From NCBI RefSeq assembly GCF_001306055.1, contig NZ_LGHJ01000025.1, positions 1 through 14,285 on the forward strand: a stretch of DNA of 14,285 nt. Direction: 5' to 3'. The stretch's first letter is position 1. Each line of letters opens with the position of its first letter. Under the pieces are notes generated by a model that searched no databases, had not been told where the DNA came from, and saw only the letters and a list, made by a program, of their open reading frames with translations. The stretch comes from Bellilinea caldifistulae (GTDB lineage: Bacteria > Chloroflexota > Anaerolineae > Anaerolineales > Anaerolineaceae). The translations under genes were made by a program, and so were the position numbers. Below, one piece after another: positions 774-10,819 of this stretch.

Positions 774-918
774 CGATCTACTTTATTCACTTACGGCGGT
801 GGTTGAATGGTTGCTTGCTGCTTTGTGTTAGTTTCAATCCGTTGTTCTGAGACGATTTATCGAAACTTTGTGTTTCAGGGTGAAACAGTTATTTTGCTTT
901 AATTCAATTAATTTTTTT

Positions 919-992
919 CCGTCATTCTTTACGAGCGCAGCGAGCGCGGCAATCTCCCGCAAAGCCTTGGCGGAGGCAGGGCGGGAGATTAC
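919..992 (+). repeat. Solo copy of the repeat family that forms the 5091-5775 array
   Basis: CCGTCATT..ACGAGCGCAGCGAGCGCGGCAATCTCCCGC (919-960) closely matches the first half of the array unit. AATCTCCCGC (951-960) pairs perfectly with GCGGGAGATT (981-990) across a 20-nt loop. Confidence 0.75.
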
Positions 993-1117
993 CAACGGGC
1001 AAAGCGGCTTAACAATTTTGCAAAGATTAATTTCGACCAACCTAAAATTTGTTATAAACAAGTTGTCCAGTGGTATTTTTTTTTCTCAATTTTTTCTCGC
1101 CCTTGTAGGGAAAAATT

Positions 1118-2952: not shown

Positions 2953-4733
2953 CCACCACTGATACCCGTTATCCGCAAACCCGCTGGAGCCTCAGCGACC
3001 TGTTCCCCGCCCCCAACAGCAGCGAACTGGAAAACGCCTTCCAGACGCTGGATCAACTGGTGGCCGAGTTTGAAACCTACCGGGGCAGTCTGCGCGAGGA
3101 CATTTCCGTCGAGGAATTTTTGAAAATCCTGCAACAGTTGGAGAAAATTCAAAATCTGGGGGCGCGGCTGTACGCCTACGCCGGGCTGCTGTTCTCCGAG
3201 GATACCCAGAACCAGACCGCCCAAACCCTGACGGCGCGGGTGGAGCAGTTTGTCGCCGACCTGACCAACCGCACGCTGTTTTTCAACCTGTGGTGGAAAG
3301 ACCTTTCCGATGAAGCCGCCGCCCGGTTGATGCCGGCTGCCGGTGACCTGGAATACTGGCTGGAAGCGCTGCGCCACTTCAAGCCCCACACCCTCAGCGA
3401 AGCCGAGGAAAAAATCATCAACATCAAGAATGTGACCGGCGTCAACGCCCTGCAAATGCTGTACAGTTCCATCACCAACCGCTACACCTTCAAAATTACG
3501 GTGGATGGCGAGGAAAAGGAACTGACCCGCGGTGAGTTGATGGTCTACGTGCGCGGCGCCGACCCCGACCTGCGCGCCGCCGCCTATCAGGAACTCTACC
3601 GCGTCTACGGCAACGACGGGACGATTCTGGGGCAGATTTATCAGGCGCTGGTGCGCGACTGGCGCAATGAGCAGATCAACCTGCGCAAACACCGCACGCC
3701 CATGTCGGCGCGCAATCTGGTCAACGACCTGCCGGATGAGGTGGTGGATACGCTGCTGGATGTGTGCGCCAGCAACGTAGATGTGTTCCAGCGCTACTTC
3801 CGCCTCAAAGCCCGCTGGCTGAAGATGAATCGGCTGCGCCGCTATGATATTTACGCGCCGGTTGCCAAAGCCGATAAGCACTATCCCTTCGATCAGGCCG
3901 CCGTGACCGTCTTCGACGCCTTCCGCGAGTTCGACCCGCAAATTGCCGAGCTGGCGCGGCGGGTGTTCGAGGAGAAACACCTTGACAGCGAGGTGCGCAA
4001 GGGCAAGCGCAGCGGCGCGTTCTGCTGGGGCGCCGTGCCGGAACTGACCCCGTGGGTGCTGCTCAACTACCAGGGGCGCGCCGATGATATGGCAACCATG
4101 GCGCACGAATTGGGGCATGCCATCCACTCCATGCTGGCATCCCATCACAGCGTGCTGACGTGGCACTCCAACCTGCCGCTGGCCGAAACCGCCTCCACCT
4201 TCGGCGAAATGCTGCTGATTGACCGCCTGCTCAAAAGCGAAAGCGACCCGGCTGTGCGGCGCGACCTGCTCTTCCGCCAGATTGACGACGCCTACGCCAC
4301 CATTCAACGGCAGGTCTTCTTTGCACTGTTTGAACGCGATGCGCATGAAATGGTGCATCAGGGCGCCTCGGTGGATGAACTGGCAAACGCTTATATGGAA
4401 AACCTGCGCCGTCAATTTGGGGACGCGGTAGATGTCAGCAACGAGTTCCGCTGGGAGTGGGTTTCCATTCCGCACATTTTCGATGTGCCGTTCTACGTGT
4501 ACGCCTATGCGTTCGGGCAATTGCTGGTATTCTCCCTTTATCAGCAGTACAAAGCCGAAGGGGATTCGTTCAAACCGCGCTACTTGAAAATCCTTTCGAC
4601 CGGCGGCTCGAAAGCGCCGATTAAGGTGTTGAGCGAGGCGGGCGTGGACGTCAGCCAGCCGTCCTTCTGGCAGGGCGGTTATGACTTCATCCGCCAGCAG
4701 ATAGAGGCGCTGGAGAGCATTCCGATTGAATGA
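2949..4733 (+). CDS. pepF: M3B-family oligoendopeptidase F (zinc metallopeptidase)
   Basis: HEXXH zinc motif (MAHELGHAIH) with a downstream glutamate block (ETASTFGE). The 594-aa length and helical N-terminal domain fit PepF. ATG 2949 overlaps the methyltransferase stop (ATGA) and follows GAGAGGAAGAAG. Confidence 0.85.
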   Translation: MTTTDTRYPQTRWSLSDLFPAPNSSELENAFQTLDQLVAEFETYRGSLREDISVEEFLKILQQLEKIQNLGARLYAYAGLLFSEDTQNQTAQTLTARVEQFVADLTNRTLFFNLWWKDLSDEAAARLMPAAGDLEYWLEALRHFKPHTLSEAEEKIINIKNVTGVNALQMLYSSITNRYTFKITVDGEEKELTRGELMVYVRGADPDLRAAAYQELYRVYGNDGTILGQIYQALVRDWRNEQINLRKHRTPMSARNLVNDLPDEVVDTLLDVCASNVDVFQRYFRLKARWLKMNRLRRYDIYAPVAKADKHYPFDQAAVTVFDAFREFDPQIAELARRVFEEKHLDSEVRKGKRSGAFCWGAVPELTPWVLLNYQGRADDMATMAHELGHAIHSMLASHHSVLTWHSNLPLAETASTFGEMLLIDRLLKSESDPAVRRDLLFRQIDDAYATIQRQVFFALFERDAHEMVHQGASVDELANAYMENLRRQFGDAVDVSNEFRWEWVSIPHIFDVPFYVYAYAFGQLLVFSLYQQYKAEGDSFKPRYLKILSTGGSKAPIKVLSEAGVDVSQPSFWQGGYDFIRQQIEALESIPIE

Positions 4734-5020
4734 GCAAATTGCCATACTTCGTTTACATCTTGACGAATTCGTACAACACCGTTTTATACACAGGTGTAAC
4801 CAATGACCTGATCAGAAGAATTAATGAGCATAAAAACGGAATTGGAAGTAAGTTCACATCCCGCTATCGCGTTCATAAATTGGTGTATGTTGAGTCAACG
4901 GAGAGCGTAGAGGGCGCCATTGGAAGGGAAAAACAAATCAAAGGTTGGTCGAGGGCGAAAAAGGTTTCGTTGATCGAATCGGTAAATCCTGAATGGAAAG
5001 ATCTTTCTGATGAGTTGTGA
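4730..5020 (+). CDS. Small GIY-YIG nuclease-domain protein (UPF0213-like, 96 aa)
   Basis: GIY-YIG signature YFVYILTN..LYTGVTNDLIRRINEHK plus REKQIKGWSRAKK. The start ATG overlaps the pepF stop (ATGA at 4730-4733). Composition is clearly more AT-rich than the neighbours: 22 of the first 60 nt are G+C, against 33 of the last 60 nt of pepF (hand count). Confidence 0.85.
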   Translation: MSKLPYFVYILTNSYNTVLYTGVTNDLIRRINEHKNGIGSKFTSRYRVHKLVYVESTESVEGAIGREKQIKGWSRAKKVSLIESVNPEWKDLSDEL

Positions 5021-5090
5021 TTATTTTGTAACTTCATTGCTGGCGGGAAAAACACTCTCCCGCGTGGGTGTAGACGCGAAAATAGTGTTC

Positions 5091-5775
5091 ACGTCATTGC
5101 AAGCGAGCGCAGCGAGCGCGGCAATCTCCCGCAAGACCGGCGGGGAGACCCCTCACTCCGTTCGGGGTGACATTAAGGGGTTTACGTCATTGCAAGCGAG
5201 CGCAGCGAGCGCGGCAATCTCCCGCAGAGCCGGCGGGGAGACCCCTCACTCCGTTCGGGGTGACATTAAGGGGTTTACCTCATTGCAAGCGAGCGCGGCA
5301 ATCTCTCGCAAGACCGGCGGGGAGACCCCTCACTCCGTTCGGGGTGACATTAAGGGGTTCACGTCATTGCAAGCGAGCGCGGCAATCTCCCGCAGAGCCG
5401 GCGGGGAGACCCCTCACTCCGTTCGGGGTGACATTAAGGGGTTTACCTCATTGCAAGCGAGCGCGGCAATCTCCCGCAGAGCCGGCGGGGAGACCCCTCA
5501 CTCCGTTCGGGGTGACATTAAGGGGTTTACGTCATTGCGAGCGAGCGCGGCGAGCGCGGCAATCTCCCGCAAGACCGGCGGGGAGACCCCTCACTCCGTT
5601 CGGGGTGACATTAGGGGGTTCACGTCATTGCGAGCGAGCGCAGCGAGCGCGGCAATCTCTCGCAAGACCGGCGGGGAGACCCCTCACTCCGTTCGGGGTG
5701 ACATTAGGGGGTTTACGTCATTGCAAGCGAGCGCGGCGAGCGCGGCAATCTCCCGCAAGACCGGCGGGGAGATTC
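5091..5775 (+). repeat. Tandem array of an 84/93-nt two-hairpin unit (7 full copies plus a truncated 8th)
   Basis: Units at 5091-5183, 5184-5276, 5277-5360, 5361-5444, 5445-5528, 5529-5621, 5622-5714 and 5715 to about 5772. They are near-identical, and the 93 vs 84 difference is a 9-nt internal duplication. The strand assignment rests on U-G wobble positions (see findings). Confidence 0.95.
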
Positions 5776-5849
5776 CCACCTGCACTGCACCAAACGCAGT
5801 GCGGTGCAAGCGTCGCTTCGCTCGGAATGACATAAAGAAGGAGTAATCC

Positions 5850-6512
5850 ATGTACATTGCCATAGAAGGTGTCATTGGAGTTGGAAAAACGACCCTGGCG
5901 CGGCTTTTACAGCCGCGCTTTGAAGCCAATTTGCTGCTGGAAGTCTTTGAAGAAAACCCCTTCTTGAGCAGTTTCTACGCCGACCGGGCACGCTACGCTT
6001 TTCAAACCCAAATCTTCTTCCTGCTCAGCCGTTATAACCAGCAGCGCTACAGCGTTCCCGCCCTGCTGGCCGAAGGAAAACCGCTGATCAGCGATTACAC
6101 CTTTGAAAAAGACGCCCTGTTTGCGCGCATCAACCTGAAAGGCGATGAACTGGAAACCTACTACCGCGTTCACGAAGCCCTGATTGAAAAGATTATCCCC
6201 CCTGATTTGGTGGTCTACCTGCGCGCCAGCACCAATACCCTGATGCAGCGCATTGCCCTACGCGACCGTCCCTACGAGCGCAACATGGAACGCGACTACA
6301 TCGCCGAACTCAATCAGGCGTATGATGAATTCTTCCTCTCGTCCAAACCACGTTTCCCGGTGCTGGTCATCGAAAGCGACCCGCTCGATTTTGTGCGCAA
6401 CGAAGGGGATCTGGAATGGATTGAGAACCGCATCCGGCAGGCGTTGCGCCTGTCCCCCTTTCAGCCGGAATTACCGCTGGATACACCCGCCGAATCGGGG
6501 CATTCAAACTGA
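5850..6512 (+). CDS. Deoxynucleoside kinase (dAK/dGK-type dNK family)
   Basis: P-loop IAIEGVIGVGKTT at the N-terminus, plus dNK blocks EENPFL..FY.D..RYAFQTQIFFLLSR and LRDRPYER. Strong RBS AAGGAG (5838-5843) sits 6 nt upstream of the ATG. Confidence 0.85.
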   Translation: MYIAIEGVIGVGKTTLARLLQPRFEANLLLEVFEENPFLSSFYADRARYAFQTQIFFLLSRYNQQRYSVPALLAEGKPLISDYTFEKDALFARINLKGDELETYYRVHEALIEKIIPPDLVVYLRASTNTLMQRIALRDRPYERNMERDYIAELNQAYDEFFLSSKPRFPVLVIESDPLDFVRNEGDLEWIENRIRQALRLSPFQPELPLDTPAESGHSN

Positions 6513-6536: not shown

Positions 6537-7541
6537 ATGCGCATCACCCTGGAAGCCCTGCATAAAGCCGCCCGCGAGAGCGCCGAACGGTATGCCCGCC
6601 GCGATCGCAGCCTGGTTTGTATTTACCTGACCGGCTCGCTGCTCGGCGAGGAGCCACTGCTGGGTGGAACAACCGATATTGACCTGATTTTTGTCCACAC
6701 CACCCTGCCGCCTTATCCGCGTGAAATTGTGCGGCTGACCGATGAAATCCATCTGGATATTGCGCACCTGCCGCAGAGCGCCTTCCAGCAGCCGCGCCGG
6801 CTGCGCGCCGATAACTGGATCGGGGCTTTTTTGTGCGCCAACCCGATTCCGCTGCATGACCTGGGACACTGGTTTGAATTTACCCAGGCCAGCGCCGGGG
6901 CGCAGTTTGACCTGCCGGAGTATGTCCTGCAGCGTGCTCGCCAATTCAGTGAGAATGCCCGTCAATCATGGCTGGATTTGCAATCCCAGCCGCCTCAGGC
7001 CACCCCGTTGCAAATTCACCAGTACCTCGATATTCTGGAAAATGCCTCTAACGCCATCAGCGTTTTGTACGGCACCCCGTTAACCGAACGTCGTTTTCTG
7101 CTTGTTTTTCCGCAGCGCGCCGAAGCCGCCGGGCGTCCGGGCATGGCCGCCGGACTGGCCGACCTGATTCAGGATGACCCTGCCAGCCCGGAACTGATCG
7201 AAAACCTGCTGGAACCGTGGCGAGTCGCCATGCAGGCTGCCGGTAGTCTGACCGAAAAGCCGCCGCGCCTTGACCCTGCCCGTCTGCCCTATTACGAACG
7301 AGCGATCCTGTCCCTGTCCGAGGCGTCCCCCGCCGCCGGGCTGTGGCCGATGCTGCGCACATGGACGCGTGCCGCCCGCGCCCTGCCGCAAAACCCAGAT
7401 GTCCTGACCGAGTGGCAAAATGCCTGCCGCCGACTGGGACTCTCCGGCGAAGCCCTGCCCGAACGTCTCAAAGCGCTGGATGCGTACCTGGACATTGTCG
7501 AAGAGACGCTCGACCTGTGGGGAGAACGGTACGGCGTGTAA
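6537..7541 (+). CDS. Pol-beta-superfamily nucleotidyltransferase-domain protein with a long helical C-terminal region, function unknown
   Basis: Minimal NTase pattern G-S-x12-D-x-D (LTGSLLGEEPLLGGTTDIDLIF) plus a downstream acidic residue (IHLDIAH). RBS GAGGAGG (6523-6529). The gene starts 24 nt after the dNK stop, so the two are probably co-transcribed. Confidence 0.6.
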   Translation: MRITLEALHKAARESAERYARRDRSLVCIYLTGSLLGEEPLLGGTTDIDLIFVHTTLPPYPREIVRLTDEIHLDIAHLPQSAFQQPRRLRADNWIGAFLCANPIPLHDLGHWFEFTQASAGAQFDLPEYVLQRARQFSENARQSWLDLQSQPPQATPLQIHQYLDILENASNAISVLYGTPLTERRFLLVFPQRAEAAGRPGMAAGLADLIQDDPASPELIENLLEPWRVAMQAAGSLTEKPPRLDPARLPYYERAILSLSEASPAAGLWPMLRTWTRAARALPQNPDVLTEWQNACRRLGLSGEALPERLKALDAYLDIVEETLDLWGERYGV

Positions 7542-7599
7542 TAAGGAAGGAAATCACACCCCCACAGGTGGGGAGTCTCTCTGCGGTTCTTTTTTCGTT

Positions 7600-9514: not shown

Positions 9515-10819
9515 ATGCTGCGAAAAATCATTCAAATCTCCTTCATCCATGTTGCTGTGGCGATGACGCTGGTGCCGATCAACAGCACCCTCAACCGGGT
9601 GATGATCAAGGAACTGGCGCTTTCGGCTGCGCTGGTTTCTCTGCTGGCGTCTCTGCCGTATCTTTTCGCTCCAATTCAGGTGATGATCGGCTCGTACTCC
9701 GACCGTCACCCAATTTTTGGCTGGCGGCGCAGCCCCTACATTGCGCTGGGGCTGTTGCTATGCGTGGCAGCTTTGGGTGTGGCGCCGTTTGCCGTGTTCA
9801 CCATGCCGCAAAACCCCGGTCTGGGGCTGGTGCTGACTTTGCTGACCTTTGCCGCGTGGGGCATGGGGTACAATCTGGCGGCGGTCAGTTATTTCTCGCT
9901 GGCTTCGGAATTGACCGGCGAACAGGGACGCAGCCGCGCCGTTGCGGTGATGATGACCCTGATGATCCTCTCGATCATCTTCACCGCTGCCACCCTCAGT
10001 CGGCTGCTGGTGGATTATTCGCCCGAACAGCTGCAAACCGCCTTTTTATATGTGGCCGGGGCAGCCCTGCTGCTGGGAATCATCGGCCTGCTCGGTTTGG
10101 AGCCGCGCAACAGCCGCCCGCTGCAAAATGTGCCGGATGAAGAACGCACCGGCTGGGTTAGCACCCTGCGGGTGGTGTTTGCCAATCCGGTGGCGCGGCG
10201 TTTCTTCTTTTACCTGATTTTGCTGCTGGCCGCCATTCTGGGGCAGGATGTCCTGCTGGAACCGTTTGCCGCCCAGGCATTCAACCTGCCGGTAGCCACC
10301 ACCACCCGGATTACCTCGATTTGGGGCACCTGTATGCTGATTACCCTGGCAAGCGCCAGCCTGCTGGAACGGTGGATTGGCAAGCGCCGGGTGGCGCAGA
10401 TCGGCGGCAGCGTTGCGGTGGTTGCATTTTTGCTCATTTCCGCCAGCGCACTGGTAGAAAACACCGGCATGTTTTACGGCGGGGTGGTGCTTTTGGGTTT
10501 GGGCAGCGGGCTGGCCACTGTTTCCAACCTCTCGCTGATGCTGGATATGACCACCGAACGGGTAGGGCTGTATATCGGGGCGTGGGGCATCGCCAACGCC
10601 CTCTCGCGGCTGACCGGCACACTTTCCAGCGGCGTACTGCGCGATTTGATCAGTCTGCTGACCGGCAATCCGCTGGCGGGTTATGTGATCGTCTTTTTCC
10701 TGTTTGCGGTGAGCCTGTCGGTTTCGCTGATTTTGTTGCGCCGCATCACCGTGCAGGGTTTTCAGGAATACAGCCGCCCGCTCAGTTTTGCGGAGCGTGC
10801 CGCTGCGCTAAATGATTAA
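9515..10819 (+). CDS. BCD (PucC/LhaA) family MFS transporter
   Basis: The N-terminal block TLNRVMIKELALSAALVSLLASLPYLFAPIQVMIGSYSDRHPIFGWRRSPYI fits the PucC/LhaA signature (TLNRVMI.ELG....P.L.AP.R...G..SD....GW.R.PY). About 12 hydrophobic segments in 434 aa. Confidence 0.8.
   Translation: MLRKIIQISFIHVAVAMTLVPINSTLNRVMIKELALSAALVSLLASLPYLFAPIQVMIGSYSDRHPIFGWRRSPYIALGLLLCVAALGVAPFAVFTMPQNPGLGLVLTLLTFAAWGMGYNLAAVSYFSLASELTGEQGRSRAVAVMMTLMILSIIFTAATLSRLLVDYSPEQLQTAFLYVAGAALLLGIIGLLGLEPRNSRPLQNVPDEERTGWVSTLRVVFANPVARRFFFYLILLLAAILGQDVLLEPFAAQAFNLPVATTTRITSIWGTCMLITLASASLLERWIGKRRVAQIGGSVAVVAFLLISASALVENTGMFYGGVVLLGLGSGLATVSNLSLMLDMTTERVGLYIGAWGIANALSRLTGTLSSGVLRDLISLLTGNPLAGYVIVFFLFAVSLSVSLILLRRITVQGFQEYSRPLSFAERAAALND

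Follow-up and report, generated by a model that had tools for sequence, protein, structure and literature searches.

In the genome of Bellilinea caldifistulae, a tandem array of hairpin-forming units lies between a gene for a small GIY-YIG nuclease (ssn) and a deoxynucleoside kinase gene (dNK), within the 14,285-nt stretch of contig NZ_LGHJ01000025.1 that we analyzed (the window). We consider it likely that this array consists of 16 palindromic DNA modules of the CGTC-tagged repetitive extragenic palindrome (REP)/Ssn-related motif (SRM) super-family, placed immediately 3′ of a gene homologous to that for the Ssn nuclease. Each module follows one plan: an unpaired (C/T)GTC tag, a covarying 5-bp stem that encloses either a G-A/mini-hairpin core or an inserted hairpin, and a C 3′ of the stem. 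Membership of the modules in this family rests on sequence and covariation. A sequence-only reading of the window had taken the array for a structured, probably transcribed RNA; the phased, spacer-less array and its hairpins hold up, and the RNA reading is not supported. That reading had also found no described class for the units, which in fact fit both the CGTC-tagged REP super-family (PMC3733652) and the SRMs flanking ssnA-type GIY-YIG genes (PMC11893778).

The tandem repeat was detected by TRF at positions 5087–5772 with a period of 93 or 84 nt (7.7 copies, 92% matches, score 1034). Eight head-to-tail units, with boundaries set by the recurring C(G/C)TCATTGC, cover 5092–5832. Comparison of the units confirms that a 9-nt duplication, (A/G)GCGAGCGC, separates the 93-nt from the 84-nt form, as had been proposed. 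The array starts 71 nt 3′ of the GIY-YIG stop codon (5020), and its terminal module ends 17 nt 5′ of the dNK ATG (5850). Every unit is an inverted pair of one module: a plus module, (C)GTC-ATTGC-[A/G]AG...GCAAT-CTC, then a short central hairpin, then a minus module that reads GTC-ACCCC-GAACGGAGTGA-GGGGT-CTC on the minus strand. A linker of 13–14 nt, ATTAAGGGGTTTA, lies between units, and the heads of the modules face each other across it.

In unit 1 (5092–5184, 93 nt), the plus module occupies 5092–5128, the central hairpin about 5125–5148 and the minus module 5145–5172, with the linker following. Units 2 (5185–5277; modules 5185–5221 and 5238–5265), 6 (5530–5622; 5530–5566 and 5583–5610) and 7 (5623–5715; 5623–5659 and 5676–5703) are also 93 nt long, and the last two carry the consensus GCGAG. 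The 84-nt units are 3 (5278–5361; 5278–5305 and 5322–5349), 4 (5362–5445; 5362–5389 and 5406–5433) and 5 (5446–5529; 5446–5473 and 5490–5517), with the tag CCTC in units 3 and 5. The terminal unit 8 (5716–5832) has a plus module at 5716–5752 and a different right half, a minus module at 5769–5832 of another stem type (GTC-ATTCC-GAG ... GGAAT-CTC) with a 44-nt insert. The 16 modules thus form eight inverted pairs, eight modules per strand in alternating orientation. A generalised module scan of the window returned seven ACCCC-type minus modules and the terminal ATTCC-type minus module, each after a plus module. Each of the 16 carries a (C/T)GTC tag, replaced by CCTC in two of them; its 5-bp stem is paired throughout, and a C follows. 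The exact copy number of the array is uncertain because N gaps interrupt the source assembly, which is scaffold-level, and because short-read contigs, whether from this organism or from related ones, all stop inside the first repeat.

Comparison with close relatives redefines the two hairpins of a unit. The sequence-only reading had drawn them as unrelated structures, H1 (5125–5148 in unit 1) and H2 (5153–5170, closed by CCCC at 5149–5152 and GGGG at 5177–5180), together with a perfect hairpin at 5782–5802, which lies in the 44-nt insert of unit 8. These coordinates are correct, and when a unit is folded as plus-strand RNA, RNAfold gives H1 and H2 at minimum energy. The unit is better seen as one module present twice in inverted orientation. 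H1 is the junction hairpin where two module tails (CTC/GAG) meet, and the H2 region is a minus-orientation module, because the right arm of the repeat shares the plan of the left arm and an intermediate exists. This evidence comes from four orthologous pepF-ssn-[repeats]-dNK loci (L003, L005, L009 and L010) with the same repeat family in the same spacer. In relatives the repeat is an imperfect palindrome of ~90 nt, GTCATTGCGAGC-(small hairpin)-GGCAATCTCCCGC-(variable centre)-GGGGGAGATTCCTCGCTTCGCTCGGAATGAC. Its right arm reads GTC-ATTCC-GAGCGAAGCGA-GGAAT-CTC on the minus strand, following the left arm, GTC-ATTGC-GAG...-GCAAT-CTC, and the intermediate minus module is GTC-ACCCC-GAGCGCAGCGA-GGGGT-CTC in L010. 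At the orthologous locus, L009 has ATTCC/GGAAT as its right-hand stem, where L010 and the window have ACCCC/GGGGT, so that the H2-region stem is doubly compensated. The H2 helix as drawn is not conserved, its C6-G13 position being mostly non-complementary in 128 homologous modules. The closing pair of the mini-hairpin (positions 3 and 9), by comparison, covaries in 128 minus modules (A..T, 66; G..C, 60; A..C, 2; G..T, 0), which supports a mini-hairpin inside the ACCCC/GGGGT stem and contradicts H2.

Family-wide, the GTC tag is invariant and the stem covaries. Stems differ across lineages yet remain complementary (ATTGC/GCAAT, ATTCT/AGAAT, ATCCT/AGGAT, ATCCC/GGGAT, ATTTC/GAAAT, ATGTC/GACAT and ACCCC/GGGGT, among others). 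In an anchor-based test that did not require complementarity, 23 of 48 distinct arm combinations, with ten arm types, were fully Watson-Crick, whereas shuffling of partners gave 3 on average and at most 9. For 56 modules not preselected for pairing, 89.5% of stem cells were paired (76% in shuffles) and 79 cells had changed on both sides (25 in shuffles); none of 500 shuffles reached the observed pairing values, and slid controls were 18–52% paired. Inside the stem, a module holds GA-GCGAAGC-GA or else an arbitrary inserted hairpin, which can reach about 45 nt. The 242 distinct inserts have a mean minimum free energy of −4.56 kcal/mol, compared with −2.75 kcal/mol for their shuffles (p = 8e-19). 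GA-GCGAAGC-GA is the commonest core (e.g. L009 4400–4432), and its flanking G-A and A-G could form tandem sheared pairs. The heptamer d(GCGAAGC) is a classic, unusually stable DNA mini-hairpin. Such a core with sheared pairs, if formed, would favour structure at the DNA level.

The gene next to the array is ssnA-like (4730–5020, plus strand) and encodes a 96-aa single-domain GIY-YIG nuclease in which PF01541 (E = 1.4e-17, residues 6–78) is the sole Pfam domain; NCBIfam, PHROGs and PADLOC returned nothing further for the protein. It has more than 8000 homologs, with 55–70% identity maintained across more than 15 phyla. Residues Y9, Y20 and E67 are invariant in the family and all kept in the window protein, and their spacing equals that of Y6, Y17 and E64, which were mutated in SsnA of N. 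meningitidis, a 94-aa single-domain GIY-YIG protein (CDD cd10448; Chenal 2025, PMC11893778). The window protein is 58% identical to that of locus L161, where two motifs bracket the gene, both fitting the published SRM pattern and close to the consensus of NTS, the hairpin recognized by SsnA. A second homolog search, aimed at SsnA, had no Neisseria protein in its best 120 matches. The window-family profile matches PDB 1ZG2 (E = 1.3e-8) and 1YWL (E = 9.6e-5), structures of the UPF0213 family (YhbQ, YazA). These proteins and Slx1, which has an extra zinc-finger domain and needs Slx4 (PMC7017083), share the small GIY-YIG (URI) domain; they are distant relatives only, with no described association with repeats.

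SsnA binds the oriented hairpin CGTCATTCCCGCGMAVGCGGGAATCYRG (NTS) as single-stranded DNA (ssDNA) only, not as duplex, RNA or reverse strand, and cuts a few nucleotides upstream of it (PMC11893778). Cutting depends on the three bases 5′ of the NTS stem and binding on the C that follows it, and SRMs flank 71% of homolog genes (PMC11893778). The NTS-ssnA-NTS arrangement has been likened to an insertion sequence (IS), and the system to REP/RAYT; in N. meningitidis it lowers transformation by NTS-bearing DNA, and its role outside Neisseria is unknown (PMC11893778).

To measure the association between module and gene, we used 80 genome loci picked by protein alone, with reversed sequence as control. 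A total of 411 modules occur in these loci (50 in the controls), 213 of them no more than 250 nt from the gene. At least one module was located within 300 nt of the gene in 69 of the 80 loci, and modules on both sides in 53. The commonest layout is module-gene-inverted module with the tags outermost (34/80), of which L158 and L161 are compact examples of ~400 nt. Four or more modules occur near the gene in 33 of the 80 loci, and modules stand in both orientations relative to genes. Arrays of 13–18 alternating modules lie by ssn homologs in a Dehalococcoidia metagenome-assembled genome (MAG; L144 5320–6046), an Anaerolineae MAG (L156 4483–5736) and the cultured gammaproteobacterium Vreelandella salicampi (L159 4607–6013). 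These counts show the association with the gene family.

Modules also occur far more widely than the gene. The pattern GTCATTSCGAG-N(6-30)-GCAATCTC, used for the viral search, is present in at least 120 IMG/VR contigs, and the minus module pattern in at least 119 metagenome contigs. Among the matches listed, a homolog gene accompanies none of the 120 viral and 5 of the 119 metagenome module loci, and the proposition that the repeats always adjoin the gene is rejected on these counts. An excess of motif over gene likewise characterizes REP/RAYT. Inverted pairs are common in the viral and metagenome loci. They are usually heterotypic (L212–L330; L009/L010 4342–4885), with ATTCC, ATTGC, ATTTC or ATGCC as the left stem and ACCCC as the right, which recalls the Y/Z REP pairs of E. 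coli BIMEs.

Judged from its sequence, the window fits the Ssn/SRM picture (PMC11893778) in every testable feature, with two exceptions. The two share a single-domain GIY-YIG gene of ~95 aa beside (C/T)GTC-tagged hairpins with an A-T-first stem and a C after the stem, and motifs that often bracket the gene in inverted orientation, outnumber it, cluster and occur in many phyla. They differ in that the modules here have a 5-bp stem plus G-A/mini-hairpin or inserted hairpin and the published motif one continuous 8-bp stem. The window also has no motif upstream of the gene, a regular tandem array of eight units and a Chloroflexota (Anaerolineae-like) host.

CGTC-tagged REPs carry an unpaired CGTC, often TGTC or CCTC, an A-T-first stem and a short tail (Di Nocera 2013, PMC3733652). 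They are mostly inverted dimers, often heterodimers, with "no dedicated transposase"; clusters are found in Neisseria and Wolbachia, and the super-family includes Neisseria dRS3 and Rickettsia RPE-4/6 (PMC3733652). The repeats described here share with them the CGTC/TGTC/CCTC tags, the A-T-first stem, the short unpaired tail, the prevalence of inverted dimers of two stem types, occasional large clusters and sites between co-directional genes near stop codons. The described stems, however, are 8–9 bp with loops of 4–5 nt, not 5 bp followed by G-A/A-G and a 2-bp mini-hairpin or an inserted hairpin; Chloroflexi are listed for GTAG repeats only, clusters are called rare and no dedicated enzyme was found. 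Under the stem criterion for CGTC REPs (A-T then T-A), the plus modules fit, and the minus modules, which have the TGTC tag, have C-G rather than T-A as the second pair.

REP/BIME/REPIN systems with RAYT resemble the array in their 5′ tetranucleotide, covarying hairpin, inverted doublets, alternating tandem mosaics (BIMEs), single nuclease gene flanked by repeats and recognition of ssDNA hairpins. They differ in tag (GTAG, here GTC) and protein (HUH (Y1) transposase, here GIY-YIG). Pfam found no Y1 transposase domain in the ten main open reading frames (ORFs) of the window, and no RAYT was seen in the window. A CRISPR array was rejected, as the units abut without unique spacers and the main window ORFs encode no cas domain (Pfam). 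Full-text literature searches on the module motif strings returned PCR primers only, and those on GIY-YIG plus repeats mostly fungal mitochondria. A search on UPF0213/COG2827/YhbQ gave one review sentence on Slx1 relatives, and one on DUF6435 gave nothing.

Several observations weigh against the assignment of the array to the Ssn/SRM family. The published SRM pattern, HGTCWYN(0-2)YYVSBRHN(0-5)WNVSBRGN(0-2)RNCYNB, has no match in the window, in the 20 kb around it, in L001 (a stretch of the window's own scaffold; GCA_001050215.2, DF967971.1) or in L003, L005, L009 and L010, and flanking matches occur in only 3 of the 80 homolog loci, L161 among them. Since the published pattern is unmatched, the SRM label depends on the generalised module definition, which yields 16 modules downstream of ssn and none upstream; the missing upstream module is explained by the gene abutting pepF. 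The identification of the window protein as an Ssn-type nuclease is indirect, as it passes through the L161 bridge and the residue spacing. Six of the eight plus modules have AAG in place of the family GAG and two have the tag CCTC, so some modules may no longer be substrates. The rarity of the gene at viral and metagenome module loci, given above, belongs with these points.

The array is turning over fast between close relatives. Its length and content differ among five genomes whose flanking proteins are 88–97% identical: the spacer measures 246, 585, 594 and 699 nt in the relatives and 829 nt in the window, with different repeat numbers and variants. The position of ssn is fixed, its ATG overlapping the stop codon of pepF (M3 oligopeptidase) as ATGA in the window and the overlap being kept in all five related genomes. 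The ssn sequence is discordant with its neighbours in the comparison with L009/L010 (Ssn 82%, pepF 97%, dNK 95% identity), and the corresponding values against L003 are 95%, 94% and 92%. DNA of low identity (73–80%) is limited to about 4690–4930, a drop restricted to ssn.

A second array of the same 93/94-nt unit is present on the scaffold at L001 3481–4076 (6.4 copies, period 94), ~1.2 kb left of the window start and ~6.5 kb from the main array. It has no neighbouring ssn, ends in an N gap and reaches across the annotated start of a minus-strand amidohydrolase gene. Decayed copies occur as well. The leader of the main array (5021–5091, plus strand) holds a decayed module (CTTCATTGC ... CTCTCCCGCGTGGG) with 67% identity to a unit in register. 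A solitary copy at 918–993 (plus strand) retains a plus module with a mismatched stem and the central hairpin, without a minus module; at this place relatives have one to several intact modules 5′ of a CAP-domain gene.

By analogy with SsnA, we infer that the window protein binds and cleaves the modules, and its biological role is proposed on the same ground. The array region would become single-stranded during replication, repair or DNA uptake, and each module could then fold. The 96-aa Ssn protein would bind the strand that reads GTC-stem-loop-stem-C and nick it a few nucleotides 5′ of the tag, within the 13–14 nt head-to-head linker. With the nick inside the linker, successive cuts in either strand would be spaced by one unit, 84 or 93 nt. 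The array most likely grew when one inverted pair underwent tandem duplication or unequal recombination, and its turnover may follow from nicks and repeat structure that promote slippage and unequal exchange. RNA hairpins produced by transcription of pepF-ssn-dNK would be a by-product, possibly with a REP-like effect on mRNA stability or on the dNK message. The job of the system may be restriction of incoming ssDNA, as in Neisseria, propagation of the repeats, or both.

One alternative is a pile-up of non-autonomous mobile elements of MITE or REPIN type, in which each inverted pair is an element that transposed or homed to a site beside the preceding one, and motif-gene-motif its autonomous, IS-like parent. 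The bracketing of the gene by inverted modules in 34 of the 80 loci, with its compact examples, would suit such a parent, and the IS analogy was raised by the authors of PMC11893778 themselves. The second array at another locus, the spread of the family over more than 15 phyla and viral contigs at 55–70% protein identity, and the discordant ssn gene tree are consistent with mobility too. We nevertheless regard this account as unlikely. The phased units, common linker and 92% matches point to local tandem duplication and not to independent insertions, the gene keeps its place at the end of pepF in five related genomes, and no transposition activity is known for single-domain GIY-YIG proteins. 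Neither a target-site duplication nor an empty site turned up in passing, although no search was aimed at either.

Modules that are decaying relics, no longer recognized by the local Ssn and kept by neutral slippage without present function, have a similarly low probability in our estimation. The AAG and CCTC variants would be expected of such relics, as would the decayed copies at 918–993 and 5021–5091. In the minus module the core is GAACGGAGTGA instead of GAGCGAAGCGA, and this exact sequence is seldom encountered (1/128 in the metagenome sample). Against decay, in all 16 modules the GTC or CTC tag survives, the 5-bp stem is paired throughout and the C follows it, and the changes in the minus module core preserve the mini-hairpin pair (A..T). 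The unit recurs in a second array, and ssn is intact with all invariant residues present.

That the array is a structured, processed RNA, transcribed between ssn and dNK with H1 and H2 acting or being cut as RNA in each unit, is improbable. Transcription through the array is itself plausible, because no promoter- or terminator-like signal was found inside it; the array and its neighbours are co-directional, and transcripts often include REP-type repeats, which can influence mRNA levels (PMC3733652). In RNAfold, internal units fold modestly better than shuffles (z = −2.5 for 93 nt, −1.3 for 84 nt), and single units fold slightly better on the plus strand (z = −2.5 vs −0.65). Inner inserts likewise fold slightly better on the module strand (−4.56 kcal/mol) than on the complement (−4.14 kcal/mol), a weak difference that loop energetics could explain. 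The last unit, however, folds far better than shuffles on both strands (z = −5.2 plus, −4.3 minus). The sequence-only reading had argued for a plus-strand RNA, an argument that depends on one C-to-T change; family-wide, single stem mismatches are G:T in 41 cases and A:C in 36 (p = 0.65), without strand asymmetry. This balance gives no hint that one RNA strand is under selection. Modules alternate in orientation in the array. About half of the homologous modules break H2 as drawn, and covariation backs a different fold. The sole Rfam match in the window at E ≤ 1 is osmY at 5782–5852 (E = 0.43, 21 bits vs a threshold of 46.9), 16 related loci have no match at gathering score, and a tRNA/tmRNA scan found none. 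The cognate protein family, moreover, does not bind RNA (PMC11893778).

That the 278-aa ORF at 5010–5846 (plus strand), which has an ATG start and a CDS entry in the public record, encodes a repeat protein is practically out of the question: two plus frames stay open across the array because 93 and 84 are multiples of 3, as the earlier reading had recognized, the ORF overlaps the end of ssn and is not conserved in relatives, whose spacers vary in length and whose called ORFs differ in frame and strand, the sister array has a period of 94, and the "significant" whole-sequence Pfam scores (DUF6435, serotonin-transporter N-terminus) lack an aligned stretch and are a repeat artefact. The likeness to widespread hairpin repeats that yield spurious proteins, which that reading had noted, is borne out.

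Returning to the preferred reading of the array as SRM-type DNA modules beside an Ssn homolog, what is new here is that the published SRM pattern misses all of the modules, that the array is long and turns over fast, and that a second array lies ~6.5 kb away. The missed module type surrounds 69 of the 80 closest homologs sampled, with hosts in Chloroflexota, Cyanobacteria, Bacillota, Bacteroidota and candidate phyla, and viral and metagenome contigs contain it in abundance. We tentatively raise the possibility that the GTC-stem-GAG...A-stem-C module, whose interior is a mini-hairpin of GCGAAGC type or an exchangeable inserted hairpin, represents a far larger branch of Ssn/SRM than the published motif covers, and that nicking by Ssn at the head-to-head linkers makes and reshuffles BIME-like arrays and copies units into new loci, which would make Ssn the missing propagator of CGTC REPs. 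If true, the branch would take in the majority of the nearest Ssn homologs, drawn from more than 15 phyla, along with phage-like contigs. The locus, with its fast turnover and nearby second array, offers a tractable place to ask whether Ssn activity drives repeat expansion. An array that looks RNA-like would be explained by a partnership of DNA repeat and nuclease described only in 2025. Such repeats also break short-read assemblies and yield annotated spurious proteins, and they would supply many new nuclease/hairpin specificity pairs for ssDNA tools.

In seven IMG/VR contigs (L013, L015, L016, L018, L030, L039 and L051), solitary modules lie directly 5′ of a ribosome-binding site (RBS) and ATG, in the same orientation, and several solitary viral modules precede the same phage-like gene (MSKVKES...). 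These modules may have a role, or reflect an insertion preference, at phage gene starts.

Downstream of the array, dNK (5850–6512, plus strand; Pfam PF01712, E = 1.4e-38) has its RBS directly 3′ of the terminal module. A 21-nt inverted match (86%) between 1033–1053 and 4932–4952 was considered as an ssn remnant and rejected, as tblastn finds no second ssn copy. The first segment is the region 5′ of the CAP-domain gene, conserved in relatives, and the second encodes KQIKGWS in ssn; the match is probably due to chance. An unrelated tandem repeat at 550–763 has nested periods of 52, 34 and 86 nt, with copies of the 86-nt period 100% matched, and the sequence GGTGGCCAGGCTGACTG[C/T]GG with or without CATGA[T/A]TCACGACT. 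At 7502–7580, a 21-nt inverted repeat (86% complementary, 37-nt loop) lies across the 3′ end of a 334-aa ORF (6537–7541) and is possibly a terminator or another repeat. The nearest named relatives of the window proteins are from Bellilinea and Chloroflexota MAGs. A bacteriorhodopsin-family gene and a PucC-family transporter gene are found a few kb apart (L001 17931–18740, window 9515–10819), apparently in an Anaerolineae genome.

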